Virus record (IMG/VR): IMGVR_UViG_3300042905_003904
Coordinates: 1-64,000 of that record
Strand: one strand, 5' to 3'
DNA: 64,000 nucleotides
Source of the DNA: a virus
The notes under the pieces were generated by a model. That model was not told where the DNA came from and did not search any database. It was given only the letters and a program-made list of their open reading frames with translations. Below, in pieces: positions 40,938-59,912 of the stretch. Made by a program: the position numbers and the translations under genes. How positions within the stretch are numbered: position 1 is the first letter of the stretch; each line of letters opens with the position of its first letter.

Positions 40938-41759
40938 ATGACTAGTCCTATTCTTAATTTGGCAGAAAAATTTGAAAATAATCAGTGTGAGGGTCATACC
41001 ACAGGCTATCCAGCATACTTCATTCGCTTGAAGGGTTGCAATTTCCATTGTGGAATCGGATCTAAGCATATTAAAGAGATTCAAGATGCTGGTAGAAATA
41101 ATACCGATTCAGGAACTTTTATTGGCCAATTACACAAAGAAGGGTCTGCTACTTGGACTTGTGATACAGCACCCCTTTGGTTGTTTGGTGATAAAACCCC
41201 ATTTCAAGAAATTGTAGATGATTGGAAGAAATTGGATATTTTTGAATGGGTAAAAGAAGGCAGAGTTCATATTATCTGGAGTGGCGGTGAGCCCACTATT
41301 TTAAAACACCAGAAATCTATTATCGAATGTTTGGATTGGCTTCATGCTGATGATAAATTTCCGCAAACGTATAATGAAGTCGAAACTAATGGTTCCTTTT
41401 ATCTAGAACCAAAGTTTTTTGAGTGGATGCAACAGATTAACTGTTCTGCAAAGCTGGCCAATTCTGGAATGTCTAAAGAAAAGAGAATAGTTCCTGCTGC
41501 TATAAATCGAATTATGGAGCATCCTAATTATTGGTTTAAATTTGTAATTTCCGAAGAGAAAGACGTAGAAGAAATTATTAGAGATTACATTACTCCTTTT
41601 AATATTCCGTGGAGTCGAACAATTTTAATGCCTGGTTTGGATGATCGAGAAGACTTTCATGAAAGAACCCGATTCTGTTTAGAGATGGCGAAGAAATATG
41701 GATTTATTGGACTTACCCGTCTTCATGTTTCCTGTTGGAATAAGTGCGTAGGGGTGTAA
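40938..41759 (+). CDS. queE: 7-carboxy-7-deazaguanine synthase QueE (radical SAM)
   Basis: QCEG...G.PAYFIRLKGCNFHC...WTCDT, SGGEP, EVETNG, S.KL.NSG, FKFVI, RLHV..W. Confidence 0.88.
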   Translation: MTSPILNLAEKFENNQCEGHTTGYPAYFIRLKGCNFHCGIGSKHIKEIQDAGRNNTDSGTFIGQLHKEGSATWTCDTAPLWLFGDKTPFQEIVDDWKKLDIFEWVKEGRVHIIWSGGEPTILKHQKSIIECLDWLHADDKFPQTYNEVETNGSFYLEPKFFEWMQQINCSAKLANSGMSKEKRIVPAAINRIMEHPNYWFKFVISEEKDVEEIIRDYITPFNIPWSRTILMPGLDDREDFHERTRFCLEMAKKYGFIGLTRLHVSCWNKCVGV

Positions 41760-41892
41760 TGAAAATATTTCTTCCCAGAATACCAACAGCTACGCCATAC
41801 AACAAAATGGAATTTGTTTCTATTTGGATGCTTAATTATGGCGGAACGTATAATAATGCTGTAAGGGTCTATCAGACAGCACTACTAGTCTG

Positions 41893-42042
41893 ATGAAATA
41901 CATAGCCACAATTGTTATAGCCGCCTGGTGGCTTGCTGGTATTGCAATTGCAAAGGGGTTCTTTTCGACTATATTTTCAATCATGATACCACCCTATGCT
42001 TTCTATCTTGTGGTTGAGAAATTAGTTGTTCGTTTCCTATAA
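41893..42042 (+). CDS. Small membrane protein (49 aa)
   Basis: MKYIATIVIAAWWLAGIAIAKGFFSTIFSIMIPPYAFYLVVEKLVVRFL. Confidence 0.55.
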   Translation: MKYIATIVIAAWWLAGIAIAKGFFSTIFSIMIPPYAFYLVVEKLVVRFL

Positions 42043-42096
42043 ATAATTTTAGGATTAAAACTCTAGCCATTTCTCCCATGAATTCTAAGTTAATAC

Positions 42097-43416
42097 ATGG
42101 CATTGAAACTAAAAGATTCGCAAAATACTCTATCGGAAAATCGCGTAGTATATGAGTATCAGAATTTCAGCGGTGAGATTCCCTTTGCCCCCAATACACT
42201 ACCATCTACAGTAAATGTGCCGCGGTTAGTTGGGATGAAGCCAATCCATGTCCCCGCCGCGCCAAAAATTGTCATGCCGGAAGAAAATCTCCCGAGATCC
42301 ATTAACTACGCTGCAGATTTTGGGGGATGTGGGTTCTGGCGCATAGATGCCCCCACAGAATTACTCAATCGTCACCAACGGGCATGTATATCTACACTAA
42401 CCCAAATGGTTTTAGATCGGAATTTCTATGGGCCGCTTAAATCTGTTCGACTTCAACGACAAGCAACTTCCCAGCAGAAGGATTTCTTAAAGCATCTTCG
42501 GGAAATTAGTAAACTAAACGGAATGCGCCTCATCTATGAAATTGATGATGTAGTCTTTTCTGAGGATATTCCTGATTATAATCGTTGTAAGGAAGGGTTT
42601 ACTGATCCGGCCGTGCGGGAATGTATCCTAGACATTATGAAAGACATGGACGAAATTACCGTCACATGCCCTTACATGAAGGAATACTACCGTGAGAAGA
42701 CCGGGAATAAGAATATTACAGTGTTGCCTAACTATGCACCAAAGTCTTGGCTGGGTCGATTCTATAACAAGGAAGAAATGGTGCGGAAATTAGAACAACA
42801 GAAGAAGCGTCCTCGTATCTTATACAGTGGAAGTGGAACGCACGTAGATTTGGCGTATAAAACAGGCGGCAACGACGATTTCACCCATTGTATTTCTGAA
42901 ATTATCAAGGCCCGCAAACGATTTAAATTTGTTTGGAAGGGCTGCTACCCACTTGCTGTTAAACCGTTTATTGATTCAGGCGAAATGGAGTTTATTGAAT
43001 GGTCTATTCTTCCTAATTATGGACAGGGACTACTAGATGCTAATTGCGTGGCTAGCATGACTATGCTTACTGATAACAATTTTAATAGATGCAAGAGCGA
43101 TATTAAAATGATTGAATCTGGTGCAATAGGTATGCCAGGAGCATATCAAGATATGGTGACTTATGATCATGCCCCTATTAAATTTAAAACCGGAGCTGAA
43201 TTAATTGACCAGTTGGATTATATTGTAGCAGACGTTGACCGCTACGCCCAACTCAGTCAGCGGGCATATGATTTTACTGCATCAAAATTTTTAGATTTGC
43301 CTGAAAACTTGGACCAGTTCTATGCGATTTACTTCTCCGCTTATGGCAGCGAAGAACGCAATAAATTATCACCCAAACTTATAGAGTTAAATCCAGAACA
43401 AAAGTTTAAATCTTAA
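42097..43416 (+). CDS. GT-B glycosyltransferase (phage type)
   Basis: ADFGGCGFWRI, YEIDD, ITVT, LPNY, GSGTH, DNNFNRCKSDIK.IE. Confidence 0.8.
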   Translation: MALKLKDSQNTLSENRVVYEYQNFSGEIPFAPNTLPSTVNVPRLVGMKPIHVPAAPKIVMPEENLPRSINYAADFGGCGFWRIDAPTELLNRHQRACISTLTQMVLDRNFYGPLKSVRLQRQATSQQKDFLKHLREISKLNGMRLIYEIDDVVFSEDIPDYNRCKEGFTDPAVRECILDIMKDMDEITVTCPYMKEYYREKTGNKNITVLPNYAPKSWLGRFYNKEEMVRKLEQQKKRPRILYSGSGTHVDLAYKTGGNDDFTHCISEIIKARKRFKFVWKGCYPLAVKPFIDSGEMEFIEWSILPNYGQGLLDANCVASMTMLTDNNFNRCKSDIKMIESGAIGMPGAYQDMVTYDHAPIKFKTGAELIDQLDYIVADVDRYAQLSQRAYDFTASKFLDLPENLDQFYAIYFSAYGSEERNKLSPKLIELNPEQKFKS

Positions 43417-44320
43417 AACAATCTACTAATTGTAATCCTTTAAGTGGCCCTGAAGAAATTGGTATTTGAGATTTGAGTGTGCGCTGCAGCAAGCCAACTC
43501 GATGTTTGGGTAAACCAATATCCGCCATTACATCCCGAAGACTGCCATAATAGTATATAGTTTCATTGGCAATGGTATCTTGAATGTGCCAAAGTTTAAA
43601 CATTGAGGATTTAAACTTTTGAACTACAGATGGATGATGATGTTTGCCCAATATCCAACTAGGTTTTCCATATAAATGACTATTTTTCCCTTGAATTTGT
43701 GGTCTTGGACCTTTCATTTTTTCTATGGTCTCTAGTGAAAGTTTTTTGCCGTAATTTGGATTATTAATACCACTATTAGCTTTGCTAATTTTTTCGTTAC
43801 GTATGCGAGCTACTTCTGGGTCTATTTTTTTGTTTTTTGCCGCAATAGAAAACTTTAAACATGTTTCTGGGCTTCTTTTTTGGCCTTTATTGGCTTTAGA
43901 TAACTTTAGTTTTGTTTCTATTGAATGATGTTTACCCGTCCATGCTCCTACTTTACCATAATTTGGATTCCCCTCTCCTTTAAATTTTTCGGAACACAAT
44001 TTTTTATAATCCCGACGAAGATAAGCATATGTTTTGGAATTTATTTTTATATTACTCACACAAGACATTAAAAAGGATGCTCGAATCATATTGTTTTTAT
44101 CTTCCCCATTTGTCATCCGCACTAATAGTAGATGGCAAATAAAATGTTCTCTAGCTGTTAGGTTAACTAAATTAGCACCAAGGCTACCACCCATACTTTT
44201 GGGTAGAATATGATGCTTTTCAAAATAAGCGGGTTCAATTATTGGATTTAGGATGCGGTGGTTGATTATATTAAAATACCATTTTGTATATTTAGAATCA
44301 TTAAATTGTGAATAAATCAT
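43406..44320 (-). CDS. HNH homing endonuclease with NUMOD3 repeats
   Basis: EKHHILPKSMGG...NLVNLTAREHFICHLLL; GKHHSIETK.K.S repeats; TAAGTA 5 nt before the ATG at 44320. Confidence 0.88.
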   Translation of the reverse strand: MIYSQFNDSKYTKWYFNIINHRILNPIIEPAYFEKHHILPKSMGGSLGANLVNLTAREHFICHLLLVRMTNGEDKNNMIRASFLMSCVSNIKINSKTYAYLRRDYKKLCSEKFKGEGNPNYGKVGAWTGKHHSIETKLKLSKANKGQKRSPETCLKFSIAAKNKKIDPEVARIRNEKISKANSGINNPNYGKKLSLETIEKMKGPRPQIQGKNSHLYGKPSWILGKHHHPSVVQKFKSSMFKLWHIQDTIANETIYYYGSLRDVMADIGLPKHRVGLLQRTLKSQIPISSGPLKGLQLVDCFKI

Positions 44321-44401
44321 GAAACTACTTATCCGAGTATTAGGCCTTTTACTTTTATATTTTCTTGAATTCCTCTTAAATTCATCAGAAGATAGTATCT
44401 G

Positions 44402-44596
44402 ATGAAAGCACCTTCTCTTTATACTTTTGATGATCTCCGCCAATTAGTAAATGGCGAAATTGGTAAGATTGAATATAAAGGTAAATGGATACCAGCAAGG
44501 CCTGTAGGGTTCTTTTCCTGGAGATACCGATTATCTTTAGCTTGGGGTGTGTTTACTGGGAAATTAGATGCCTTAAAATGGCCCGGAGGGCAATAG
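44402..44596 (+). CDS. Small hypothetical phage protein
   Basis: WIPARP...RL.LAWGVFTGK.DAL.WPG motif. Confidence 0.6.
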   Translation: MKAPSLYTFDDLRQLVNGEIGKIEYKGKWIPARPVGFFSWRYRLSLAWGVFTGKLDALKWPGGQ

Positions 44597-44597
44597 A

Positions 44598-44939
44598 ATG
44601 AAACATATAATTCGACAAATTGGGGATAAGAGTTTCCGGGAATATGCTTTTGATGAGAATGAAAATGGTTATTATTTGATGAGGCGCCTAGGGCTCTTTA
44701 AAAATAAGGGTTACTGCAACAATAAACCAGATTATAAGGGTTCTTGGATTCCGTGCTATATTGGGATGGAAGGACCAGATCATGGTTTAAGACCATATGC
44801 CCACATTAAAAATTTAGAATGGGGTGAAATGTCTGATGAAAGTTTAGATTGTTCTATTTGTGAATTTTTAGGACCTATTAATAAAGAGTTAGACGCAATA
44901 GGTGGTTTGGTGGATAATTTTGCAACATACAAATACTAA
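44598..44939 (+). CDS. Hypothetical protein
   Basis: 113-aa ORF coupled to the polymerase start. Confidence 0.55.
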   Translation: MKHIIRQIGDKSFREYAFDENENGYYLMRRLGLFKNKGYCNNKPDYKGSWIPCYIGMEGPDHGLRPYAHIKNLEWGEMSDESLDCSICEFLGPINKELDAIGGLVDNFATYKY

Positions 44940-47518
44940 TGCAAAGCTGGCGCAATATTTTCTATTCATCCCGGGAGAATAAAGTAATTTTATGGACCTG
45001 GAATGACGAAGGCAAACGAATCAAAGTAGAAACCTCTTATGAGCCATATCTCTACATTGAATCGAAGAATCATCAGGATGCTGTTAGCATTTTCAACACT
45101 TCGCTGAAGAAACTGACGTTTAAGAATCAATTTGAACGCAGCAAATTCGCTAACGAAACGCCCATCCACAGGCTTTTCCACAACATTGGCTGCGAACAGC
45201 AGTTCTTGCTGCAAATGTATAAGGACGAAAACCAAAAACCGGATTTCGCCCAGTTTCCTTTGAAGATATTTCATCTGGATATTGAAACCTACAACGGCGA
45301 TGGTCGAGGATTTTCTACCCCAGAAGAAGCTTTTGCTCCCATCAACCTAATCACCATCTATGATACTCTTTCCGAAACGTATCATACTTGGGGGTTAGGA
45401 GAATATACTTCTAAAAAGGATAATGAAAAATACTACTTCTGTAAATCGGAGCAAGTTCTTTTACAGAAGTTTCTAGCCTTTTGGGAAGCAGACTTTCCAG
45501 ATATTGTGGCTGGGTGGAATATTATGGGATATGATATTCCCTATTTGATTAATCGGATCACCAATCTATTTGGAAAAGAAGAAGCTTCCAGACTATCCCC
45601 AGTCGGGACTTTATATTTTCGAGAGAATGTTGGTAGGGATAAGTTTGGTAAGGTCATTAATAAGTGGCACATTCGAGGATTGTCTTTAATTGATTCCATG
45701 GAAGTCTATATTACCTTCGCTCGTGGTAGCAGAGAATCCTATTCCTTGGGATATATTGGGGAATATGAATTAGGAGAAAGTAAAACCAATACCAATGGAA
45801 TGAATTTGGCTAAGCTTTCTCAGGAGAATTGGCCGTTGTTTGTAGAGTATAACATTCAAGACGTAAAACTTCTGGTGAATCTGGAGGAGAAATTGAAATT
45901 TCTGCGATTGGTAAGAACTCTTTCTTATCGCGGTTTCATTACTTTCGAAAGCGCCTTAGGAAAAGTCTCGATGATTACAGGGGCTGTGGCTAATCAGGCT
46001 ATGAAAATGGGATTTGTAATCCCAACCTTTAAGAATTTGGCTGATCGGATTGCTTATGAAGGAGGTTATGTGCATGAACCAGAGCGAGGATTGCATAATG
46101 GAGTGATTAGTTATGATGCTAATAGTTTGTATCCAAATACCATCATTACTCTTAACATTTCTCCTGAGACCAAAATTGGTAGAATAACCAATCGAACAGA
46201 AACGGATGTTACTATCCTGTTAGCTAACTATAAATCCGTAACTTTATCCCAAGAAAAGTATCAAAAGTTGGTTAAACAGGAAAAGTTATCCATTTCCAAG
46301 TATGATGTTTTATATACCCAGAAGTTTAAAGGGGTTATTCCTGAACTGATCGATAAATTTTACCAAGAGCGCGTTTCTTCTCGCAAAGAAATGAATGCCT
46401 GTAAGAAAAAGGTAAAGAAGGAGACGGACCCAGCTCTACAAGCAAAGTTAAACCAAAGAATTCTGGACTTGGATACCATTCAGAACACCATGAAATTGCT
46501 CCTAAATTCATTATACGGTGTCTTTGCACAGAAATTTTCCCCCCTCTTCGACATTGATCATTCTGGAAGCATTACCCTGACAGGCCAGCACACTATTAAG
46601 CAGGCAGCTGATATTGCTTATGGTTATGCTCAACATCGGGGATTTAAAGGAACTAAAAATCAGATTTATCTCTATTCGGACACCGATTCTATTTTCGTAG
46701 CAGCCGAACCCCTTATTAATGTTAAGGGATCTTTGGTGGAAGCGGACGGAGAATTAAATACCTTGGTTAAAAGTAGTGTGCAAGGTTTTGATGATTACCT
46801 AAATGAAGAAATTAAGAGATGGGCGCAGAAAGAACTGAATTCTGCTGATCCACGTTTAGTATTCAAACGGGAAGCTGTTTGTGACAAAGCCGTTTTCATG
46901 GAAAAGAAGCGGTATATTCTTCATGTCATCAACCAAGAAGATGTTCCGAGTAACTATTTCAAGTATGTTGGCGTAGAAATTGCTCGGTCTACTATGTCTA
47001 AGGAAGTAAAAGAGCTGGTAAAGGCTGTTCTAGAGAATGCTATTTTGAATGGAGATCGGAAAACCGCTAATGCTATATACCAAAAGGCCTATGCTGACTA
47101 TCAGAATCTCCCCATTGAAGCCCAGGCATTCCGAAGTAAGATTTCAGACTTGGAAAAGCAGGAATTGAAGCGAGGGGAACATGGAGAGATTGGTAAACAT
47201 ACCCCCAGCCATGCTAAGTCGGCTATTTATTATAATGATTTCCTGAAGAAACTTCAAATTGACACCAAATATCCGGCTATTGGATCTGGAATAAAAATGA
47301 AGTGGTTCTACGCCGCAAAGAATCCTTATAATTTGAAGAATATGGGATTCATCGATGTATATCCTCCAGAAGTAGCCGCTCATGTGCAGCCAGACATGCA
47401 GAAGATGTTTGATAAGAGTGTAGCTCCACCTATTACTCGGTTGTATGAATGTATTAACTGGCAAATCACCCAGCCAGGTCATGAAACCACCGTTGACTTG
47501 TTTGAATTATTCGCTTAA
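44939..47518 (+). CDS. gp43: Family B DNA polymerase (gp43-like)
   Basis: DIET exonuclease, GWN...YDIPY, YNIQD, YDANSLYP, KLLLNSLYG, YSDTDS, KKRY. Confidence 0.96.
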   Translation: MQSWRNIFYSSRENKVILWTWNDEGKRIKVETSYEPYLYIESKNHQDAVSIFNTSLKKLTFKNQFERSKFANETPIHRLFHNIGCEQQFLLQMYKDENQKPDFAQFPLKIFHLDIETYNGDGRGFSTPEEAFAPINLITIYDTLSETYHTWGLGEYTSKKDNEKYYFCKSEQVLLQKFLAFWEADFPDIVAGWNIMGYDIPYLINRITNLFGKEEASRLSPVGTLYFRENVGRDKFGKVINKWHIRGLSLIDSMEVYITFARGSRESYSLGYIGEYELGESKTNTNGMNLAKLSQENWPLFVEYNIQDVKLLVNLEEKLKFLRLVRTLSYRGFITFESALGKVSMITGAVANQAMKMGFVIPTFKNLADRIAYEGGYVHEPERGLHNGVISYDANSLYPNTIITLNISPETKIGRITNRTETDVTILLANYKSVTLSQEKYQKLVKQEKLSISKYDVLYTQKFKGVIPELIDKFYQERVSSRKEMNACKKKVKKETDPALQAKLNQRILDLDTIQNTMKLLLNSLYGVFAQKFSPLFDIDHSGSITLTGQHTIKQAADIAYGYAQHRGFKGTKNQIYLYSDTDSIFVAAEPLINVKGSLVEADGELNTLVKSSVQGFDDYLNEEIKRWAQKELNSADPRLVFKREAVCDKAVFMEKKRYILHVINQEDVPSNYFKYVGVEIARSTMSKEVKELVKAVLENAILNGDRKTANAIYQKAYADYQNLPIEAQAFRSKISDLEKQELKRGEHGEIGKHTPSHAKSAIYYNDFLKKLQIDTKYPAIGSGIKMKWFYAAKNPYNLKNMGFIDVYPPEVAAHVQPDMQKMFDKSVAPPITRLYECINWQITQPGHETTVDLFELFA

Positions 47519-47519
47519 A

Positions 47520-47735
47520 ATGCTTTGTCAATCTACATACAACGGAGAATGGTTTACAGTAACTATAGACAGATCAACTATGGAACGAGGGTATGTTTTA
47601 AAAACTCGTAACCCCAACGGAGAGTTTATCAGTCACAATACTCCATTGAAGCGAAAGGAGTTTATTGACAAATTTGGTTTCTCTCCAGAATACCCTCACT
47701 TGATTTATTTTGAATTCCCAGAAAAATCAAATTAA
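47520..47735 (+). CDS. Hypothetical protein
   Basis: 71-aa ORF from ATG 47520. Confidence 0.45.
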   Translation: MLCQSTYNGEWFTVTIDRSTMERGYVLKTRNPNGEFISHNTPLKRKEFIDKFGFSPEYPHLIYFEFPEKSN

Positions 47736-47743: not shown

Positions 47744-48628
47744 ATGACTAAACCAATCCAAATCGCCCATGAGGCCCCCATCTCTTTGATGTCCCTAGTT
47801 CGAGAATTAACGGATTATGACTATGCGCTGGTGCATCTCCTGGATCAAGATCCAAACTATGTCGAATACTTCAAGCAATCTAAGGCTATGGGCCGAAAGA
47901 TCATCATGGACTGCAGTGTTTATGAGCTAGGACACTCCTATGATTGGGAGAAATATGATTATTGGATTCGAACGATCCAACCAGATGAGTATGTTGTGCC
48001 AGATATATTCATGAAGATGGAAGAGAATCATAATGAATTTGACAAATGGAATACTAGTTTTGGTTATAATATTAAAGAAGACGGAATAAACACTAAAACT
48101 ATTGGAGTGGTTCAAGGAAATACCTTAGAAGAATTTGAAATGGGATATAAATTTATGGCTGCTCATGCAGATAAGATTGCCATCAGTTTTGGTTATGGAT
48201 ATTTCTGGGATGAATATCTAAACAACAACTATGTAAATGAATTTATAGAAAATGGGCTTAGTGCTACTAAAACTAAATTTAAACCCCTGGCATATCATGA
48301 TGGTCGACGCAAACTATTAAAACATTTCATAGACCGGGGAATTATCAATTACAACAAACCGCATCATTTGTTGGGTTGTGGTTTGCCGGATGAATTTCGG
48401 CTATATGCAGACGAAGATGAATATTCTTTTATTGAATCTATTGATACTACTCATCCAGTCATGACGGCTATGAATGCTACTTTATATCCCTATGGAATGG
48501 ATAGAAAATCTGATAAGAAAATGGTGGATCTTTATGACCAACAGTTCCATGAAGAAGTAAAGGATACGGTTATTAAGAATGTGAACTATTTCCGAGAAGA
48601 AATTTGTGGATATTCCAAGCTAAACTAG
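47744..48628 (+). CDS. TGT/DpdA-like TIM-barrel transglycosylase (divergent)
   Basis: IMDCS..E, VPD, IGVVQG, HHLLG, ESIDTT match the TGT-family motif order; Que genes in the same genome. Confidence 0.65.
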   Translation: MTKPIQIAHEAPISLMSLVRELTDYDYALVHLLDQDPNYVEYFKQSKAMGRKIIMDCSVYELGHSYDWEKYDYWIRTIQPDEYVVPDIFMKMEENHNEFDKWNTSFGYNIKEDGINTKTIGVVQGNTLEEFEMGYKFMAAHADKIAISFGYGYFWDEYLNNNYVNEFIENGLSATKTKFKPLAYHDGRRKLLKHFIDRGIINYNKPHHLLGCGLPDEFRLYADEDEYSFIESIDTTHPVMTAMNATLYPYGMDRKSDKKMVDLYDQQFHEEVKDTVIKNVNYFREEICGYSKLN

Positions 48629-48641: not shown

Positions 48642-49859
48642 ATGTATCAAGTAATCGACGGAATTCCTGTTTGGGGTGAACCAATCCCAAATGCTATTAA
48701 GCAACTTTCTGTTTGTGTTAATAAAGCTAAAGATATGGGTGTTTTTGTTGGAGCGGCATTAACCGCGGACCACCACCCGGGATATTCTTGCCCTATTGGG
48801 GGAGTCTTAGCTTTAAGAGGAGCTATTTCTCCTTCTGTTACAGGATTCGATCAAGCGTGTGGCAATAAAGCAGTATTGACTGATGCAAAACTTTCTGATA
48901 TAAGAGACAATATATCAACTATCATGGATGATATATTTAAAAACATCTCCTTTGGCATAGGTAGAAAAAATAATGACGGAATAGACCATTCAGTATTCGA
49001 TAATCCTTCATGGAACATACCTGTTTGTGCAGAGTTAAAGGAAATGGCTAGAGAACAGTTGACCACGGTGGGGTCTGGTAATCACTATGTTGATATCTTT
49101 CATGATGAGTTGGAAAGAATTTGGATAGGCGTTCACTTTGGGTCTAGGGGATTGGGTCATAAACTAGCTACCCACTTCATTAAAGCTGGTGGCGGCAAGG
49201 ATGGTATTGACGTCGAACCGGTAATTTTGGAAGAAGGAACCGATTTAGGCCGACAATATATTGACGGTATGGCGCTTTGCGGGGAATATGCTTATGCTGG
49301 AAGAGATTTGGTTTGTTCTAAAGTAGCAAATATCTTGGGGGCAAACATTTTAGAAGAAGTTCACAATCATCACAATTTCGCCTGGGAGGAATGGCATCCA
49401 GAATTTACTAAAAACGATGACTATGTTTGGGTCGGACGCAAGGGCGCTACTCCTGCTTTCCCTGGTCAAAGGGGATTTGTCGGTGGAACCATGGGAGAAA
49501 ACTCTGTCATTTTAGAAGGAGTAGATTCTGCAGAATCTAAATTGTCTTTATATTCCACAGTTCATGGAGCAGGACGAGTAATGTCTCGAACGGCTGCTGC
49601 TGGCAAATCTAAATGGAAAAATGGCGTTAAGACCAGAGTTTCTGAAGGTCTAGTTTCCCAGGAAATGATGAATGATTGGGTGAAAACTAAGGCTAAAGTA
49701 GAATTACGCGGAGCCGGAGTGGATGAATCTCCACATTGCTATAAGCGTCTGGACGAAGTTCTGGATGCCCACAAAGAAACCATTAAGATTCTACATACTC
49801 TTACTCCAATTGGAGTGGCTATGTGCCCTGATGGAGTTATAGATCCATTTAAAGATTAA
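48642..49859 (+). CDS. rtcB: RtcB RNA ligase
   Basis: D.HPGY..PIGG, G.D..CG, GSGNHY, HFGSRG.G, HNHHN, RKGATPA, HGAGRVMSR, DESP..YK. Confidence 0.93.
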   Translation: MYQVIDGIPVWGEPIPNAIKQLSVCVNKAKDMGVFVGAALTADHHPGYSCPIGGVLALRGAISPSVTGFDQACGNKAVLTDAKLSDIRDNISTIMDDIFKNISFGIGRKNNDGIDHSVFDNPSWNIPVCAELKEMAREQLTTVGSGNHYVDIFHDELERIWIGVHFGSRGLGHKLATHFIKAGGGKDGIDVEPVILEEGTDLGRQYIDGMALCGEYAYAGRDLVCSKVANILGANILEEVHNHHNFAWEEWHPEFTKNDDYVWVGRKGATPAFPGQRGFVGGTMGENSVILEGVDSAESKLSLYSTVHGAGRVMSRTAAAGKSKWKNGVKTRVSEGLVSQEMMNDWVKTKAKVELRGAGVDESPHCYKRLDEVLDAHKETIKILHTLTPIGVAMCPDGVIDPFKD

Positions 49860-52367: not shown

Positions 52368-52865
52368 ATGTTTAAATCTACAAAAATATTAGAGTTGGGT
52401 AGCTGCTGCTTCAGACAAGAAGCAGCCAAAGAGGGCAGAAACGCGGGAACTCGTTCTCATCGATGCAGTTATACGCATGGATATTTATTGAGGGGGAAAT
52501 TTGAATTCTCAACCAATGAATTGGATCATCGTAATTGGTGTGTTGATTATGGTGGGTTAAGTGGATTAAAGGAAATTCTTAAAAACCAATTCGACCACAC
52601 GCTTCTTTGTGCGAAGAATGACTCCTTACTTCCATTATACCAAGAACTACATGATAAGGGTGGTTGTGATCTTCGTATTATGGATGGGGTTGGCATTGAA
52701 AAGACCGCTGAATGGTGTTATCACGCTGCGCAAGCCTTTATAGACCAAGAAACTAATGGTCGATGCTGGGTTTCTAAGGTAGAAGTTTGGGAACATGAAT
52801 TAAATTCAGCTATCTATATTCCTCCCTTTGGAGATCCCTTTAAATATTTTCCCACACATGAATGA
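52368..52865 (+). CDS. queD: 6-carboxy-5,6,7,8-tetrahydropterin synthase QueD
   Basis: C...HGY, WCVDYGGL..LK..L...FDHT, E..AE, VWEHELNSAIY. Confidence 0.88.
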   Translation: MFKSTKILELGSCCFRQEAAKEGRNAGTRSHRCSYTHGYLLRGKFEFSTNELDHRNWCVDYGGLSGLKEILKNQFDHTLLCAKNDSLLPLYQELHDKGGCDLRIMDGVGIEKTAEWCYHAAQAFIDQETNGRCWVSKVEVWEHELNSAIYIPPFGDPFKYFPTHE

Positions 52866-53325: not shown

Positions 53326-53631
53326 ATGGCATGGTTTAGCTTCGGTAAATTACCCAAAACCGCAATTAAAGAGGAAGAACCTACAGAGATTCCACCAGAA
53401 TACTATAGTTCCATAATGTTTAAATGTCGTAATTGTCAAAAGGAATTTTCGGGCGCAAAGATCCTCAAAGGAGCTATGGAATATGTAGCAGAAAATCTTG
53501 TTTCCCATGGGAAACACCCTATATACACCACTGATCCCCATGCATTTATTATCTACGACAAATGCAAACACCAATGTTCTGAAGATTGTTGGAGTATTGG
53601 GGACTTTATTAGAATCATAACGAACTCTTGA
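53326..53631 (+). CDS. Hypothetical Cys-containing protein
   Basis: FKCRNC ... HQC...IGDF. Confidence 0.55.
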   Translation: MAWFSFGKLPKTAIKEEEPTEIPPEYYSSIMFKCRNCQKEFSGAKILKGAMEYVAENLVSHGKHPIYTTDPHAFIIYDKCKHQCSEDCWSIGDFIRIITNS

Positions 53632-53656
53632 TTCCTAAGAATTTTTAAGTTAAAAT
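53628..53656 (+). promoter_or_regulatory. sigma70-type promoter TTGATT-N17-TAAAAT, 5 nt before ATG 53662
   Basis: Read directly; the same TTGATT/TAAAAT pair occurs at 59036-59063. Confidence 0.6.
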
Positions 53657-53661
53657 AAGTC

Positions 53662-54108
53662 ATGCGTCAATGGCTGTGCGATCCTAAAATTCTTTGTAGA
53701 AAACATCTCCTCGGAGAACATGTGGAAATACATATGTTCGTCGGACATATCAATAAAGGCAAGAAGGTTACCAAATTTCTCTCCAATAACCTTTTAGAGG
53801 TAGAAAGTTTGGAGTCCCGACATGAGGAATTGGTGGAAGAAATGGAATCTCGAGGGTATAAACACAACAGTCCCTTTCAAGGCTTGCTTCCTCACAATAT
53901 TCCAGATACCAAAATTGATAAAGTGGCTGCTCTAACTGAATTAGTAAATAGGTGTCCAGAATGTCAAAGAAATTGGCATAAACGAAATGTGGATTTGACT
54001 AATAATCATAGTATGTTTATGAAGATAGCCAATACATTGCCTCGAATGGATTGGAATATGTGGGAAGAAGTCGCCAAAAATTCTGGAAAGCAATTGATTA
54101 ATGGCTGA
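53662..54108 (+). CDS. Pyrimidine-dimer DNA glycosylase/endonuclease V-like
   Basis: MR.W..DP..LCRKHLLGEH.E.H ... RH..LV.EM..RGY.H.SP. Confidence 0.78.
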   Translation: MRQWLCDPKILCRKHLLGEHVEIHMFVGHINKGKKVTKFLSNNLLEVESLESRHEELVEEMESRGYKHNSPFQGLLPHNIPDTKIDKVAALTELVNRCPECQRNWHKRNVDLTNNHSMFMKIANTLPRMDWNMWEEVAKNSGKQLING

Positions 54109-55498
54109 AGATACCTTACCACTCAATTTTGAGGAGTTTGAACGCATTATGATCTATAATGCTCTAACAGATTCCTCGTATTTGGATGCTGCTATCGAGT
54201 ATATCGTCCCTTCTTACTTCCAATGCAAGGACACGCGAACTGTATTCTCAATTCTCGCGCATTTTTATGGTGTTCATAAGAAAGTTCCCAACTTAACGGA
54301 ACTAAAGGCCCATATTATTGAAGAAGAACACAAAAGTTCGCTTAAAGCAGTAGTGAAATCCTTCGAAGGGATTGATAAACACTATGACAAAGACCTTTTG
54401 TTGATCAACACGGAAAGGTTCTTGAAGGAGAAGGCTGTTTTAGCTACTTCTATTCGAACCCATGTGGCCATTCAGTCTGGAAGATATGAACCAGCCAAGA
54501 TTCTTCATGAATTTGAAGCAGCATGTGGTATTTCTTTGGTGAATAGTATTGGAATGGACTATTTGGAGAGCATAGACCAGCACTGTAAGGACCTACAAGA
54601 GGTATTTCAGGTCATCCCAACAGGATGGAAGTGGTTAGATGAACGAATTGGTGGGGGATTACAAGCTAAAGGCAGAGCTGTGTATGCTTTCTACGGAGTA
54701 ACTAATGTAGGCAAGTCAATTTTCTTGGGGAATTTAGCAGCCAATATCCTTAGTCAGGATAAATCCGTGCTGCTTGTTACATTGGAAATGTCTGAACAGA
54801 TGTATGCCAAGCGCATCAGTGCTCAACTTTCCAAGATCCCATTTGATAATCTCCCACAAGAGATAGAAGCCTTGAAGGGGTCTTTAGGAACCTATAAACT
54901 TAAACACCGAAAAGCCAAGCTAATTATCAAAGAATTCCCACCCAAAGGAATTAATCCTCTCCAACTCAAGGCATACATTGAGAGGATGAAGAGAAAGGGT
55001 ATTAAATTTGATGTAATTGTTCTGGACTATCTTAATCTATTAGCCCCCTTAACCCACGGAGTCAGTTCTTATGAGGCTATTAAGGAAATTGCAGAACAAT
55101 TAAGAGCATTAACATATTACTTTAGTTGCCCCTTGGTTACAGCCAGTCAGACGAATCGATCTGGATATGGTCAAGTAATGCCAGCATTAGAAACAACAAG
55201 CGAATCTATGGGTCTGGCTCATACGGTCGATTGTCAGATGCCTATTTGGACCGAAGAAGAAGACTTTGACTTGGGTGTTATTCATTTAGGTATCACTAAG
55301 AATCGATTTGGTCCACGAGAATGTTCTACTATTCTCCAAATTGACTACCCCACACTATCATTAACAGATCCAGATGAAGTTTCTAAAGCATATTCTCCTC
55401 CGGTGCCCAATATTCCTGGAAGTTTGAAGAATAAGAAGCCTACTGATACTTCATTGAATAATACCCTTGATTTAATAGAAAAATTAGGAGAAAATTAA
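54101..55498 (+). CDS. gp41: Replicative DnaB-like helicase (gp41)
   Basis: PTGW..LD...GG, TNVGKS, TLEMSE, IIKEFP, LDYLNL, TASQTNR, SESMGL, KNRFG. Confidence 0.94.
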   Translation: MAEDTLPLNFEEFERIMIYNALTDSSYLDAAIEYIVPSYFQCKDTRTVFSILAHFYGVHKKVPNLTELKAHIIEEEHKSSLKAVVKSFEGIDKHYDKDLLLINTERFLKEKAVLATSIRTHVAIQSGRYEPAKILHEFEAACGISLVNSIGMDYLESIDQHCKDLQEVFQVIPTGWKWLDERIGGGLQAKGRAVYAFYGVTNVGKSIFLGNLAANILSQDKSVLLVTLEMSEQMYAKRISAQLSKIPFDNLPQEIEALKGSLGTYKLKHRKAKLIIKEFPPKGINPLQLKAYIERMKRKGIKFDVIVLDYLNLLAPLTHGVSSYEAIKEIAEQLRALTYYFSCPLVTASQTNRSGYGQVMPALETTSESMGLAHTVDCQMPIWTEEEDFDLGVIHLGITKNRFGPRECSTILQIDYPTLSLTDPDEVSKAYSPPVPNIPGSLKNKKPTDTSLNNTLDLIEKLGEN

Positions 55499-55501
55499 TT
55501 T

Positions 55502-55840
55502 ATGAATGATATTTGTGTTTATTGCGGAAAGGGAACAACTTATATCCGAAGGACTCCTTGGACTGGATTAGAGTCTTCAACTATAAAAATTCGTTCCTGG
55601 AATCATGGATTAGATGGTCCTGAAATCGTTAGATGCCATACCTGCGGACCACGACCCATTAAATATAGATTGTTTGCTGAATGGAGATATATTAAACGAG
55701 TTTGTAGGGCTATATATCGAGAAATTTTATTTAGATTTTTTCCCAAAGAACGTTGGTGGAATGCCTTCTATAGACCGGCAGCATCCCAAATTCAATGGGA
55801 AAAATATTTTGCGCATAAAAGACCACAACCCAATGAATAA
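55502..55840 (+). CDS. Hypothetical protein
   Basis: CVYC...CHTC; 112 aa. Confidence 0.5.
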   Translation: MNDICVYCGKGTTYIRRTPWTGLESSTIKIRSWNHGLDGPEIVRCHTCGPRPIKYRLFAEWRYIKRVCRAIYREILFRFFPKERWWNAFYRPAASQIQWEKYFAHKRPQPNE

Positions 55841-55844
55841 GACC

Positions 55845-56128
55845 TACCTTGTTTTCACTCACTACGATTTAGAGGAGAAGATTAATTTATGAACCGAAAA
55901 TCAAAAGGGGTATTTAAATATCCAACACTCCAACAAGAGCCCTCATCCGAATTAATCCAAAAATATATGCAAGATAATCCTGGGTTAGGATTTTATGCCT
56001 CTCGTGAAAGATTGCGAGAACAGGCTTACGGCGGAAAGGCTCCCAACGGATTCCAAAGTTGGGGTGATTATTGGAAGACTTACTAAAATGACTAAAACTT
56101 ACCTTGTTTTCACTCACTACGATTTAGA
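55845..56128 (+). repeat. 29-bp perfect direct repeat (55845-55873 and 56100-56128) flanking a small gene
   Basis: TACCTTGTTTTCACTCACTACGATTTAGA twice; it encodes the start of the DHH gene. Confidence 0.92.
55889..56086 (+). CDS. Small inserted hypothetical protein
   Basis: 65 aa between the repeats, preceded by GAGGAG. Confidence 0.65.
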   Translation: MNRKSKGVFKYPTLQQEPSSELIQKYMQDNPGLGFYASRERLREQAYGGKAPNGFQSWGDYWKTY

Positions 56129-56984
56129 CGGGGTGGTTAGTCTCCTAGCCTTTCAATGGGCCCGGCCTGGTTGTAAGATCATTTCTTATCCGATGTCTAA
56201 TTTAGATGTGGGCAATGGTAAAATTAAGAAAATTTATGACACAGAAGGCGGTTCGAATTTTTCGGTAGTTTTATTAGATTTGGCTTTGCGCGAAGAATTC
56301 CTAGATATGGATCTTCCTAATGTAACCATTATTGATCATCATGCTTCTTCGGCTGATGTTATTCCTAAATTCAAAAAAGCTAAGATCCTCTGGAAGGATA
56401 CCACCTCTTGTGCTAAGTGGATCTATGAAAATTTCTTAAAGGATAAGAATCTCAGCAAAGAACAGAAGGCTTTAATTGCCTTGGCTGATGATTTTGATTG
56501 TTATGCTCTGAAGGATCCTCGTTCCTACCAACTCAACATGGTATTTTGGGAATGTTACCGCAATAAGTGGGAAACTTTTGTTCGGGATTATAGAGATGGA
56601 TTTGTTTCTTTTAGTTTGATGCAGATTAAGCAAATTGAATCTGTTTTAAGGATTGCTGATATCCAAGCAGAGAATACTAAAGCCTATATTGGGAACGTTA
56701 TTATAGAAGGAAAAGAACAATGTGTAGCAGCCTTTCAGTTGGAGCGAAATACTTCCCAACTAATGGATGCCTTACAGCGAATGTATCCAGAACAACAAGC
56801 TTATTTCTTTATCAACACCAAAACTGGACGAATTAGTTTGAGGAGTAATATGAAACACCCAGATAAAGTAGATGTTAAAACATTTGCAGAGAAGTATTGT
56901 GAAGGTGCTGGACATGTTTATGCTTCTGGTGGCAAAATTACCGAGAAATTTTTGGAAATTACTAAGAATTTGCACCAGGTTTAG
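56088..56984 (+). CDS. DHH-family phosphoesterase
   Basis: THYDLDG, LLDL, IDHH, D..D, SLRS, GAGH..ASGG. Confidence 0.88.
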   Translation: MTKTYLVFTHYDLDGVVSLLAFQWARPGCKIISYPMSNLDVGNGKIKKIYDTEGGSNFSVVLLDLALREEFLDMDLPNVTIIDHHASSADVIPKFKKAKILWKDTTSCAKWIYENFLKDKNLSKEQKALIALADDFDCYALKDPRSYQLNMVFWECYRNKWETFVRDYRDGFVSFSLMQIKQIESVLRIADIQAENTKAYIGNVIIEGKEQCVAAFQLERNTSQLMDALQRMYPEQQAYFFINTKTGRISLRSNMKHPDKVDVKTFAEKYCEGAGHVYASGGKITEKFLEITKNLHQV

Positions 56985-57041
56985 GATAAGTATTAGACCA
57001 TTAAATGGTGCCTTAGTTCTTTGTTAGGATAATTATGGGTA

Positions 57042-57386
57042 ATGATTATCACCAGCGCACAGCAGATTGAAGATTTCACCAATCCAGGGAACGCCTTTGA
57101 TACCACAGAATTTGAAGACATTGCTTTAAAGTTTGGATCCTTTGTTTGTATTGCTAGAGGAAAGAAACTGAATTTCCTCAATTTTCTGAAGTTGTTCTTA
57201 GAAGATCAGAAAACTCAAAAAATCTTCATGGAGCTACTTGAAGATACTAATCTTCATGCTATTATTAAAGCATACATTAACTGTGCGCCGAATCTTTACA
57301 AACGACTCTTCCGCTCAAAATTAAACCGAAAAAACCGCAACCTAAAAACGAATAAACCGCTTCTTGAACCCGCTAACCCCAACTGA
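57042..57386 (+). CDS. Hypothetical protein
   Basis: 114-aa ORF upstream of the gp32 region. Confidence 0.6.
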   Translation: MIITSAQQIEDFTNPGNAFDTTEFEDIALKFGSFVCIARGKKLNFLNFLKLFLEDQKTQKIFMELLEDTNLHAIIKAYINCAPNLYKRLFRSKLNRKNRNLKTNKPLLEPANPN

Positions 57387-58023
57387 ACAAAACCTTTACA
57401 ATACCTATCTCAAACACTCGAGGAAAGGGCAAGCATGGACGCCTCGAAAGAACTTTGAAGATCTGTCCGCTACTATTGTTAGCCCCTTAAAGAAACTAAG
57501 TCTGTTTCTTTCTAAGTATCCCCAAATCAACTGGGAAGAATATTTTGCAGCCCCTAATGTTTTACATCCAGAGGATCGTTATCCAACATTAGACACGTTT
57601 GCTTCCAGGGTCGGCATTCGAAACTATCAGCTTTACAAGAAGCACCAAGAAAACCAATCTCCAGAAAGTCATTTGGATGAAATTAAGAAGGGATTGAAGT
57701 TTATTGGGATGTTTTGTATCAAGAACAAAATTCCAGTGGAGAAATATCTCCAGCACAAGAACGGCCTGATGCCAAGTTGGACGATGCATTATCGGGAGCA
57801 CAATATCAGCCCCTATTGTCTCTTTGAATTGGGAGCCAATGATTTTTACAATTTAACCGAAGAAGAACAGGCCTATTGGGCGCCTGATTTGATTAACACT
57901 TTAGACATACTGAAAACTAGATATCATCAGTCCTCAAAAATAAAAGGTCTGGTGCAAGAAATAACTCATAAGATTAAGAATTTTGTAAGTTCCGAGTTGA
58001 GTAAGTCTAATTCCCAAACATAA
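57364..58023 (+). CDS. Hypothetical protein (position suggests gp59-like helicase loader)
   Basis: Directly upstream of gp32 as in T4-like synteny; weak motif support. Confidence 0.45.
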   Translation: MNPLTPTEQNLYNTYLKHSRKGQAWTPRKNFEDLSATIVSPLKKLSLFLSKYPQINWEEYFAAPNVLHPEDRYPTLDTFASRVGIRNYQLYKKHQENQSPESHLDEIKKGLKFIGMFCIKNKIPVEKYLQHKNGLMPSWTMHYREHNISPYCLFELGANDFYNLTEEEQAYWAPDLINTLDILKTRYHQSSKIKGLVQEITHKIKNFVSSELSKSNSQT

Positions 58024-58053
58024 TAAACAACACAACCAATAAACACAACAACC

Positions 58054-58884
58054 ATGAAATACACCGCCTCACTATTCGACTCCATCAAAGGATCCTTAGC
58101 CAAGAAAGAACAAGAATCTGGATTTTCCGATTTCCTCAAGATGGAAATGGGTAAGACCTATGTCGTTCGCCTTCTGCCAAACCTAGAAGCCCCCGAACGC
58201 ACATTCTTCCACTATTATCATCACCTCTGGGACTCTGTCCTTGACGGTAAGAAAACCTCTTGTCTGTGTCCTACTACCTATGGAGAGAAGTGCCCCATTG
58301 ATGAATATCGTTCCAAGGTCTATAAGAAGAACAATGAAGCCGACATTAAGGCCATGCAGCCTATTCGTCGTAACGAAAACTGGTTGGTTAATGTTTTCGT
58401 GGTAACAGACCCAAGCAACCCAGAGAATGAAGGTCAGGTTAAGATTCTTCGTTATGGCAAACAGCTCGATAAGATTATTGATGCTGCAATGAACGGAGAA
58501 GACGCAGAAGAACTCGGTTCTAAGATCTTTGATGCTTCCGAAAACGGTTTGAATCTTCGTATTAAGTGTGAAAAGAACGAAGGAGGATTTCCAACCTATG
58601 TTTCCTCCAAGTTTATCACCAAGGCTAGCGCCTTGCCTGGTGTAGATAATGTGGAAGAGCTTTATGGCAATATCAAAGCCCTCGACACCATCTTCACCAA
58701 GAAGTCTTACGAAGAGATTAAGGAACAGTTTAACACTCATTATCTGGGTGTCGATTCTAAGAAGGCTGCCCCAATAGAAGTAAATGAGGACGACGAAGAT
58801 CCTGAACTGAAGGAAGCCGCAAAGCCTGACAAGGAAGAAGAAAATCCGGATGCAGCCCTTGATAAGCTGATTGCTGATCTCTAA
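58054..58884 (+). CDS. gp32: Single-stranded DNA-binding protein (gp32-like)
   Basis: VRLLP, H, CP.TYGEKCPI, NV.VV.DP.NPENEGQVK..RYGK, acidic tail. Confidence 0.92.
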   Translation: MKYTASLFDSIKGSLAKKEQESGFSDFLKMEMGKTYVVRLLPNLEAPERTFFHYYHHLWDSVLDGKKTSCLCPTTYGEKCPIDEYRSKVYKKNNEADIKAMQPIRRNENWLVNVFVVTDPSNPENEGQVKILRYGKQLDKIIDAAMNGEDAEELGSKIFDASENGLNLRIKCEKNEGGFPTYVSSKFITKASALPGVDNVEELYGNIKALDTIFTKKSYEEIKEQFNTHYLGVDSKKAAPIEVNEDDEDPELKEAAKPDKEEENPDAALDKLIADL

Positions 58885-59069
58885 AATGAATAAAGTTCCA
58901 ACACCCCCAACTCAACCAGACTTCTCCAAAATTAGTTGGGAAAGTGGAATGATGTGGGTGTTGGAACAACTTTTCAAAAATTGCAATAAAGAAGAATTGA
59001 AGAAACTACTAAACAAACGAAACAAATTAAACTAATTGATTTCCAAGAAAACTAAAATAAAATAAACAT

Positions 59070-59912
59070 ATGCCACGAATCAAAACAAACGACGATATCC
59101 CAGATGTTCAAAACGACACCGAGGGATTTGTGAAGAAGTATATTCCCAAGGTAGGAAGCCGAAACATTCGAGTTCCCTTGGAGATCGTAAGACGAGACGG
59201 GAGTGTGAACCCAACTTGTGGGGTGCTTAGCATCTACACAGATCTGGAAGCTGATAAAAAGGGAACTAACATGAGTCGATATCGCATCCTAGTGGAGGAA
59301 GCGGTAGCCAATAAGACTCATCGTATCGATGAATTGGTAGATTATCTCTTAGATGAATGCAAGAACCGTATTGGCTCACAAAACGCATACATCAAAGTGA
59401 ACTTCGAATACTTCCTCATCAAAGAAGCCCCGGTATCAAAGATCAAATCGCATATGAGCTATAAGGGTTCGTTTGCTGGAAAATTGGTGGATGGGGTTAA
59501 GCGGTTTTATTTAAGTGCTAATGTGCTATATGCGAGCTGCTGCGTGTGTTCAAAAAATATATCAGATTATGGCGCACACAATCAACAATCCTTTGCTGAT
59601 GTAACAGTTGAACTAGACCAAATCAAAGATCGTAATAATCTTTACTGGTTTGAAGAACTAGTAGAAGCTGTTGAGAAGAGTGTCTCTGCTCCAATGTGGA
59701 ATGCCCTAAAGCGAGTTGACGAGGCTTATGTTACGGAACTGATGTATGAACAAGCTTTGTTTATCGAAGATTGTGTGAGAAACATATCAACAGTATTAGA
59801 CGGAGAATTGGACAAGCGTATCAAGGACTATCTCGTTGTGTGTGAACATTTCGAGTCAATCCACCAAAGTCAAGTTTGCTCAGTAATTCATGCAAATCGA
59901 GAATTAAAGTAA
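59070..59912 (+). CDS. folE2: GTP cyclohydrolase type IB (FolE2)
   Basis: PDVQ, KVG, KGTNMSR, C.CSK.IS.YGAHNQ, LKR.DE..VTE, FIED.VR, ESIH. Confidence 0.92.
   Translation: MPRIKTNDDIPDVQNDTEGFVKKYIPKVGSRNIRVPLEIVRRDGSVNPTCGVLSIYTDLEADKKGTNMSRYRILVEEAVANKTHRIDELVDYLLDECKNRIGSQNAYIKVNFEYFLIKEAPVSKIKSHMSYKGSFAGKLVDGVKRFYLSANVLYASCCVCSKNISDYGAHNQQSFADVTVELDQIKDRNNLYWFEELVEAVEKSVSAPMWNALKRVDEAYVTELMYEQALFIEDCVRNISTVLDGELDKRIKDYLVVCEHFESIHQSQVCSVIHANRELK

Follow-up and report, generated by a model that had tools for sequence, protein, structure and literature searches.

The first 64 kb of the viral contig IMGVR_UViG_3300042905_003904, a stretch of 64,000 nucleotides referred to here as the window, encodes a 7-deazaguanine pathway whose genes lie dispersed in and around a T4-like replication module. 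From this gene set it is concluded that the phage very probably synthesises a 7-deazaguanine base, starting from GTP, and that this base replaces guanine in the phage's own DNA. The system belongs to the known DpdA3-type 7-deazaguanine DNA modification. A guanine transglycosylase of the DpdA3 subfamily, the predicted base-swapping enzyme (47744-48628, plus strand; assigned by homology, profile and fold), is encoded together with FolE2, QueD, QueE and QueC on one contig. By analogy with modified phage genomes, the DNA of this phage should resist restriction. An initial annotation of the window had pictured an old DNA-modification system integrated among the replication genes. This picture holds, and the same interleaved order recurs in related IMG/VR contigs.

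The window is part of a single contig of 129,222 bases that is linear by IMG/VR class and 61% complete by CheckV estimate. Its family B polymerase (PolB; 44939-47518) is a T4-like replication gene with at most about 29% identity to gp43 of T4-like cyanophages, and is accompanied by a UvsX/RecA homologue, a DnaB-type helicase, a gp32-like single-stranded DNA-binding protein and a Rad50-like ATPase. The stretch is present in assembled contigs of public runs that are labelled lake water or freshwater metagenomes; nearly the whole of it was recovered in three runs, which may be its source. The phage is a distant T4-like phage found in lake-water metagenomes.

A DpdA3 transglycosylase next to the polymerase

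The initial annotation had described the product of 47744-48628 as a divergent protein resembling DpdA or tRNA-guanine transglycosylase (TGT). The TGT-like character stands, but the protein is not an unclassified form: homology to proteins of immuto and CP220, and a profile match to phi19:2, place it in the DpdA3 subfamily. This subfamily was named in 2023 by Hutinet et al. for the immuto, CP220 and phiST proteins (PMC10516641).

A tblastn search of a phage isolate collection (50,697 phage records) matched the protein in 18 records, of which four are Flavobacterium immuto phages and fourteen belong to the Campylobacter CP220 group. The immuto match, annotated as a DNA guanine transglycosylase, is 36.9% identical over 95% of the length (E 3e-48), and identities to the CP220 group are 32-33% (CP220 itself 32.4%, E 1e-28). 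The pairwise search does not reach the phiST type, to which the founding member CGPG_00065 belongs. Phage phi19:2 is of the same species as phiST, and its gp042 was used for this comparison: a profile built from 35 homologues matches it with an hhalign probability of 98.3% (E 2e-14, 229 columns). The family is large: of 2208 candidate proteins, 2022 match at E<=0.001. The protein also matches phrog_19058, annotated as function unknown, at 5.3e-32.

The initial annotation had asked for structure prediction, and the predicted model does adopt a TGT barrel. The AlphaFold2 model has a mean predicted local distance difference test score of 92.3, and in a Foldseek search all of the top 50 matches were to Zymomonas mobilis TGT (best E 4.3e-9). 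Aligned with VIA-align, the model and Z. mobilis TGT superimpose with Z 17.9 and a root-mean-square deviation (rmsd) of 3.1 Å over 240 residues. When compared with 48,161 representative chains the best match was the bacterial DNA preQ0 insertase DpdA (PDB 7ui4; Z 17.1, rmsd 3.5, 237 residues aligned), followed by ArcTGT (17.0), TGT (16.3) and QTRT2 (15.6), with unrelated TIM barrels at 14.2 or below. The protein has 294 residues, against 375 in Escherichia coli Tgt and 413 modelled residues in 7ui4.

The motif order D-x-S, GVVQG, HLLG and S-x-D, on which the TGT-like reading was initially based, is present in full as D56-C-S58, G121VVQG125, H208LLG211 and S232-I-D234. Not all of its positions are equally conserved. 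In the alignment of 35 family sequences D56, S58, G121, V122, Q124, H208-G211, C212 and D234 are invariant and G125 is nearly so (>=90%), but V123 and S232 vary. A low-confidence alignment with E. coli Tgt pairs GVVQG with GIIQG, KPHHLLGCG with KPRYLMGVG and IDTTHP with FDCVMP; only in this alignment does D234 pair with the FDCV aspartate of the E. coli enzyme. The invariant D56 and D234 are candidates for the two catalytic aspartates of TGT, the nucleophile and the general acid/base. The zinc site was noted as lacking, and it is: there is no CxCxxC..H motif, and C212 is the sole invariant cysteine among the 35 family members. The CxCxxC motif reads CDCYTC in E. coli Tgt and occurs neither in 47744-48628 nor in phi19:2 gp042 or phage 9g DpdA1. 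We also considered acidity together with the missing zinc motif as a sign of a substrate other than DNA, and rejected it. The median isoelectric point of the DpdA3 family is 5.19, that of E. coli Tgt is 5.97, and the DNA-acting 9g DpdA1, which has no CxCxxC, is similarly acidic at 5.64.

By fold and family, the enzyme is thus predicted to exchange guanine for a 7-deazaguanine base.

Genes for precursor synthesis

The first pathway step, conversion of GTP to dihydroneopterin triphosphate (H2NTP), is assigned to FolE2, GTP cyclohydrolase IB (59070-59912, plus strand). It matches PF02649 practically over its full length (positions 1-258 of 260; 2e-61, 208.2 bits against a cut-off of 25) and NF010200 with 194.5 bits, just below the cut-off of 215. 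That the cyclohydrolase is of type IB rather than FolE had been read from the window before and is borne out; neither a Pfam search with PF01227 nor a protein search with the immuto FolE found FolE in the 129-kb contig. FolE2 homologues are rare among the phage isolates: they occur in 3 of the 50,697 records, one of them a 6.7-kb fragment and two of them unannotated Staphylococcus records. The term FolE2 is absent from the main text of PMC10516641, and the FolE2 passages of a 2016 review concern cellular organisms.

A phage-type QueD of the 6-carboxytetrahydropterin synthase family is encoded at 52368-52865 (plus strand; PF01242, 45.1 bits against a cut-off of 22.4; phrog_2389, 1.3e-27). It is 39% identical to immuto QueD. 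Its motif reads CSYTHGY rather than CxxxHGH, and CxxxHGY is found in 39 of 42 QueD-like open reading frames (ORFs) of the DpdA3 loci analysed below, as well as in immuto QueD. The protein and the QueD-like ORFs of these loci (L005-L084) also have FRQ where the canonical QueD of the contig has AAHQ. As judged from the sequences, this suggests a rearranged metal site in phage-type QueD. Assignment of the gene as DpdL, whose motif is LxxxHRHxF (PMC10516641), was ruled out: the protein has CxxxHGY as in other phage QueD, and not the DpdL motif.

The QueE-like radical SAM protein, a putative 7-carboxy-7-deazaguanine synthase, is encoded at 40938-41759 (plus strand). The ORF spans 40848-41759, and the ATG at 40938 fits a profile match that starts at residue 30. 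It matches phrog_2076, "QueE-like radical SAM", at 1.3e-35. There was no Pfam match at E<=0.01, and the NCBIfam QueE models scored far below their cut-offs (best 50.6 against 260.1 bits). The cluster motif is C34-x3-C38-x36-C75. Aligned QueE sequences from immuto and from relatives of the window have C-x3-C...C-D-(S/T) in common, with an insert of varying length that is shorter in other phage QueE.

Outside the window, at 97895-98305 of the contig (L001 1489-1902, minus strand), lies a further QueD whose motif CSQLHGH is that of canonical bacterial QueD (PF01242, 78 bits), giving the phage two genes of the QueD family. It adjoins an ORF that resembles dCMP deaminase by sequence motif, read without a family search, and an ORF with a weak HD_4 match.

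With such genes in hand, one may ask if FolE2, QueD, QueE and QueC merely boost folate, pterin or queuosine precursors of the host, with the TGT-like protein in some unrelated role. FolE2 and the family of QueD and PTPS do take part in folate and pterin pathways as well, as described in the 2016 review, and the canonical QueD beside the dCMP-deaminase-like gene would suit such a role. Yet the full set FolE2-QueD-QueE-QueC-DpdA3 occurs together and is kept across the window's clade, and the same gene set goes with DNA modification in characterised phages (PMC10516641). A purely metabolic role is therefore the least credible of the explanations weighed here and is given hardly any weight.

The QueC module

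QueC, of the 7-cyano-7-deazaguanine synthase family, is encoded near the start of the window (3944-4696, minus strand; PF06508, 2.4e-51, 174.6 bits against a cut-off of 22). It carries the PP-loop SGGLDS and a C-terminal cysteine cluster, C..CGTCSAC, and is 40% identical to QueC of Vibrio phage VH7D and 30% identical to the CP220 QueC homologue. An attempt to tell the "7-amido-7-deazaguanine (ADG) synthase" QueC of the CP220 type from ordinary QueC by alignment revealed no diagnostic difference.

Downstream of QueC follow three genes on the same strand. The first is a GT2-like glycosyltransferase (3238-3978; PF13712, 1.5e-11), whose membership in the pathway is uncertain and which also lies beside QueC in the related genomes G001 (48% identity) and G002 (43%). 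The second encodes Gat, a class-II (Ntn) glutamine amidotransferase and putative QueC partner (2568-3233; PF13522 matches a shorter ORF at 1.1e-08). Its reading frame is open back to I-C-G-I-L-G, and homologues start M-C-(G/A/S)-I, with the N-terminal nucleophile of this enzyme class. The third encodes a DUF366/COG2029 protein (1999-2565; PF04017, 3.9e-26).

Gat homologues are found downstream of QueC in G001 and G002 and at 23 of the 80 DpdA3 loci. The protein aligns to the Gat half of the Gat-QueC protein of phage 9g (gp06; 24% identity, 1e-05) and the QueC of the window aligns to the other half. The two genes form a split arrangement resembling Gat-QueC, not a fusion, with the GT2-like gene between them. 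That Gat homologues occur together with QueF at those 23 loci suggests that Gat may just supply QueC with ammonia. It was not detected in CP220 or immuto, and neither Gat nor the DUF366 protein gave an informative match in the phage isolate collection.

The DUF366 protein resembles PDB 2ddz, a hypothetical protein (6.3e-07), and is kept after Gat in G001, G002 and G005; the ESM Atlas clusters of its family are mostly viral. No literature on DUF366 was found. The set of kinase, primase-like gene, QueC, GT2-like gene and Gat, DUF366 and four further ORFs is common to the window, G001 and G002. Three components were not included in the initial annotation: Gat near QueC, the canonical QueD (at 97.9 kb of the contig) and the DpdA3-linked kinase treated below.

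Gene order in related contigs

The claim that the pathway genes are scattered is fully supported. QueE, the TGT-fold protein, QueD and FolE2 each stand alone among replication genes, and each is identified by a family match in addition to its motifs. QueE lies 36 kb and FolE2 54 kb from QueC, in agreement with the distances first noted.

The best 80 of 548 confirmed IMG/VR DpdA3 matches, taken together with flanks of at most 10 kb on both sides, were used for comparison of the surrounding genes. In a tree of 83 rows (the 80 loci, the window, immuto and CP220) the window and ten loci (L005-L014) form one branch, and these 11 of the 83 rows are split from the other 72 with a support of 100/100. 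Wherever a locus of this clade is long enough, the order Rad50 - QueE - glycosyltransferase - PolB - DpdA3 - small ORF - UvsX - QueD - DnaB - DHH protein - gp32 - FolE2 recurs, with DpdA3 41-79% and PolB 55-95% identical. Since the dispersed order recurs in related contigs, the scattering must be old. PolB is present at all ten clade loci, UvsX at eight, QueD (syntenic between UvsX and DnaB) at seven and QueE at five. FolE2, syntenic after gp32, is likewise present at five, and the other five end before its expected place.

Two remoter contigs (PolB 45% identical) have a looser version of this arrangement, with DpdA3 and FolE2 in one module and the kinase right after DpdA3. At the other 70 loci the genes mostly form clusters, arranged as DpdA3 - DpdN-like - kinase - QueF - QueC. 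Within 10 kb of DpdA3, QueF was found at 60 of the 80 loci, a DpdN-like gene at 59, FolE at 39, QueC at 36 and FolE2 at 8.

Some genes are additions in this genome, namely RtcB, NUMOD3 and LAGLIDADG homing endonucleases and a DenV-like glycosylase. RtcB, of the tRNA ligase family (48642-49859; PF01139, 3.3e-60), lies directly downstream of DpdA3, between it and the next conserved ORF. In L005, the closest relative, whose neighbouring genes are 79-100% identical, DpdA3 is followed directly by that ORF, and no RtcB match was found there or at any other of the 80 related loci. RtcB is a recent insertion.

RtcB bears on the possibility that the TGT-like enzyme puts a deazaguanine into tRNA of the phage or host, as in queuosine or archaeosine. 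The TGT fold of 47744-48628, the adjacent RtcB gene and the presence of 10 tRNAs in the contig, among them tRNA-Asn(GTT), would all agree with that. The tRNA-Asn(GTT) class carries queuosine in bacteria. Against it stand the absence of RtcB from L005 and all 80 related loci, the grouping of the enzyme with the DpdA3 of phages that have fully modified DNA, its lack of a TGT Pfam signature and zinc site, and the position of DpdA3 between PolB and UvsX across the clade. We consider tRNA modification highly improbable. The initial annotation had allowed for action on DNA, on tRNA or on nucleotides; DNA and the nucleotide level are both still live, and tRNA has become unlikely.

The tRNA genes form a cluster of 10 on the minus strand at 103987-111389 of the contig, outside the window, and include two tRNA-Met besides tRNA-Asn(GTT).

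Proposed pathway and product base

The genes may be combined into the following pathway. FolE2 would convert GTP to H2NTP, from which phage-type QueD, by its family, would make 6-carboxytetrahydropterin (CPH4). QueE, assigned at the family level, would then make 7-carboxy-7-deazaguanine. QueC, probably with ammonia from Gat, would make ADG and then 7-cyano-7-deazaguanine (preQ0), or else 7-formamidino-7-deazaguanine (G+) if Gat acts as in Gat-QueC. Finally, DpdA3 would exchange guanine for the 7-deazaguanine base.

The product depends on which tailoring enzymes follow. QueF was not found in the 129-kb contig or in relatives with an estimated completeness of up to 82%, with either the Pfam model or the immuto protein as query, and DpdN or another formyltransferase was not found in the contig. 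Two QueF candidates were rejected: a weak tblastn match to immuto QueF at 60640-60879 lies in the LAGLIDADG homing endonuclease, and a PF14489 match in G003 (14.5 bits) falls in an unrelated ORF that has no homologue in the contig.

With no QueF and no DpdN found, the product is probably the deoxynucleoside of one of three bases, dPreQ0, dG+ or dADG, and these are held at roughly equal odds. In favour of dPreQ0, which is put slightly ahead, the QueC is 40% identical to QueCs working ahead of QueF and only 30% to that of CP220. A case for dG+, doubtful when taken singly, rests on analogy with phage 9g, where Gat-QueC goes with dG+ (PMC10516641). The third product, dADG, is likewise unlikely by itself, and is suggested by CP220, which has the same gene content apart from Gat.

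Complete replacement of guanine has been tied to DpdA3, with dADG in CP220, dDG in phiST and fdPreQ1 in immuto (PMC10516641). Every G is replaced in each of the three DpdA3 phage types that the literature has analysed, so that by analogy replacement should be near-complete in this phage as well.

Several observations weigh against the proposed modification. No DpdA3 activity has been obtained in vitro or in E. coli, and failed attempts have been reported (PMC10516641). By sequence alone the link of 47744-48628 to TGT is weak: there was no match to the Pfam TGT family (PF01702) or to any other Pfam family at E<=0.01, nor to an NCBIfam family at E<=0.1, a PDB profile search gave nothing significant (7ui4 at E 1.3), and hhalign of DpdA3 against E. 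coli Tgt gave a probability of 1.6%. The QueE of the window shares no more than 25-28% identity with its syntenic counterparts in the clade. For Gat, an ATT precedes the catalytic cysteine codon where homologues have ATG, and a Gat with such a start may be poorly expressed or defective; the ATT might be explained by use of a rare start codon, by a defect or by an error in sequencing. Moreover, all 23 Gat-bearing DpdA3 loci carry QueC and QueF, and in these cassettes the presence of QueF speaks against a role of Gat in G+ formation. With the contig estimated to be 61% complete, QueF or another tailoring gene could sit in the missing part. Enzyme activity and DNA chemistry are, moreover, not readable from a sequence. 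Modification of the DNA through DpdA3 is nevertheless the explanation that we favour.

Base exchange before or after replication

According to the published proposal, the base is exchanged on DNA after replication (PMC10516641). For the phage studied here we give this acceptor slightly less than an even chance. The chief competing explanation, taken to be about as likely, is that DpdA3 is not a DNA insertase and swaps the base on free deoxyguanosine, dGMP or dGTP before replication; a linked kinase would phosphorylate the product, PolB would incorporate it, and in other lineages a phosphohydrolase of the MazG or HD type would join in.

The kinase in question is a deoxynucleoside- or nucleotide-kinase-like P-loop protein (AAA_28; 16208-16858, minus strand; PF13521, 5.9e-14; phrog_2107), whose part in the pathway is suggested by its distribution. 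Homologues lie within 3 kb of DpdA3 at 56 of the 70 loci outside the window's clade, and at 53 of the 59 loci with at least 2.5 kb of downstream flank, usually inside the cassette between DpdN and QueF. In the phage isolate collection they occur in 21 records, all of them of the Campylobacter CP220 group or immuto. Every one of the 18 records with DpdA3 is among the 21; of the remaining three, two are further fragments of a single Campylobacter phage and the third is phage CC_R7, whose kinase without a DpdA3 match counts against exchange on nucleotides. Within the window's clade the kinase does not lie beside DpdA3 either (0 of 10 loci) and sits by the primase and QueC.

The fold of the kinase would suit a substrate at the nucleoside or nucleotide level. 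Among known structures, its model comes nearest to human deoxyguanosine kinase (190 residues aligned with Z 16.3 and rmsd 3.1) and NadR ribosylnicotinamide kinase (Z 16.3), ahead of deoxyadenosine kinase (15.1) and of thymidylate kinases (about 14-15; Tmk 14.9), and a PDB profile search gave a deoxynucleoside kinase match at 2.3e-06.

In all three characterised lineages nucleotide-handling genes flank DpdA3, and in each a nucleotide phosphohydrolase is among them: an HD+AAA_33 protein and an AAA_28 kinase in CP220, a PRA-PH/MazG-like hydrolase, a kinase and a phosphoribosyltransferase in immuto, and MazG and an AAA_18 P-loop protein in phi19:2. The phi19:2 P-loop neighbour, on the other hand, matches the kinase profile only at the P-loop, and MazG, PRA-PH and HD hydrolases, the candidates for removal of dGTP, were found neither in the contig nor in four relatives. 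At 25 of the 80 loci a gene for a small phosphoribosyltransferase (PF00156) is found no more than 10 kb from DpdA3, and immuto and phi19:2 have one too (L003 9840-10235; L102 20290-20718); no homologue was found in the contig.

To our knowledge every characterised enzyme of the TGT superfamily acts on a polymer, which counts against exchange on free nucleotides. The acidity of DpdA3 and its missing zinc motif do not discriminate, as the DNA-acting 9g DpdA1 has both. Published observations in keeping with exchange before replication are that 100% replacement occurs only with DpdA3, that the ADG nucleoside is found in the cytoplasm of infected cells and that heterologous DNA modification failed (PMC10516641). 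The word "kinase" is absent from the main text of that paper.

If true, a swap before replication would account for the restriction of complete G replacement to DpdA3 phages. The genome here could then contain dG+ or dPreQ0 throughout, an outcome so far unreported for DpdA3. The distribution of the kinase-like gene, almost exactly that of DpdA3, is a testable lead on replacement before versus after replication.

Other features of the window

A run of genes for sugar chemistry on the plus strand (30017-38957) comprises two GT2, a GT17, a GT8 and a GT10-like glycosyltransferase, two NAD-dependent epimerases/dehydratases, a radical SAM protein and a methyltransferase, and stops just upstream of Rad50 and QueE; its target may be DNA, the virion or the host surface. 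The conserved glycosyltransferase-like gene between QueE and PolB lies at 42097-43416.

The polymerase region and FolE2 are flanked by homing-endonuclease-like genes at 43406-44443 (minus strand) and 60007-61041, one of the NUMOD3 and one of the LAGLIDADG type. Of the 18 loci compared, two have a match to the NUMOD3 gene and none has one to the LAGLIDADG gene.

Positions 7998-15577 form a block of 57-59% G+C that stands out from the genome, which has about 38% G+C. It contains minus-strand ORFs, among them two Laminin_G_3 paralogues that weakly match virion-structural PHROGs. The block separates the primase-like gene from the kinase; in G001 and G002 the distance between the same pair is below 1 kb. 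Because the two are close in these relatives, the block has the appearance of a foreign insertion or of a join made in assembly. A PAS-domain protein of 132 residues (17628-18026, minus strand; PF08447, 6.6e-12) is seemingly unusual for a phage.

Comparison with known systems

Few phage defences against restriction are known to be stronger than a genome with 7-deazaguanine. DpdA3, tied to 100% replacement, is the least understood enzyme of the system. The layout and gene mix described here bear on how complete replacement is achieved. The initial annotation had added that cluster-based searches would miss such a system, and mining of that kind would indeed pass over a pathway so dispersed among replication genes.

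TGT and the bacterial DNA preQ0 insertase DpdA (7ui4) have the barrel fold in common with the DpdA3 of the window, which is shorter and has no Pfam TGT match and no zinc site of the E. coli Tgt type. The Z-genome set PurZ/MazZ/DatZ offers a functional analogy for exchange at the nucleotide level, with a base-changing enzyme, a phosphohydrolase and kinases near the polymerase, and complete replacement. Its enzymes are unrelated to those here, and unlike in that set no phosphohydrolase was found in the window's clade.

Phage 9g (FolE, QueD, QueE, Gat-QueC and DpdA1; dG+ for about 25% of G) resembles the window in gene content apart from the types of transglycosylase and cyclohydrolase. It likewise has no annotated QueF, and its DpdA is located beside polymerase and clamp genes. 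It differs in its fused Gat-QueC, DpdA1, FolE and compact cluster, compared with the split genes, DpdA3 and FolE2 found here.

Immuto has a homologous DpdA3, a CxxxHGY QueD, a C-x3-C...C QueE, QueC and a relative of the AAA_28 kinase (30% identity). In contrast to the window phage, it has FolE instead of FolE2, QueF and the formyltransferase DpdN, neither of which was found here, and a family A polymerase. Its genes stand in one cassette, except for QueC at a distance of 15 kb, and no Gat homologue was found in it.

The CP220 group (Firehammervirus), with dADG for all dG, consists of T4-like myoviruses by annotated gp23-like capsid and gp19-like tail-tube features. Its members resemble the window in their homologous DpdA3, the lack of QueF and their AAA_28 kinase relatives. 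Scattering of the pathway is seen in CP220, too, where 46 kb separate DpdA3 (54.7 kb) from QueC (101 kb). On the other hand, the kinase and the HD/AAA_33 protein directly flank DpdA3 in CP220, its QueC is 30% identical to that of the window, no Gat was found, and its DpdA3 falls on a branch separate from that of the window (100/100).

Compared with the literature consulted, four things are new in the system described here: the host lineage, which is that of distant T4-like phages from freshwater; a dispersal through the replication core that is conserved, with CP220 as a precedent for scattering; FolE2 in place of FolE; and a split Gat/QueC pair without QueF.

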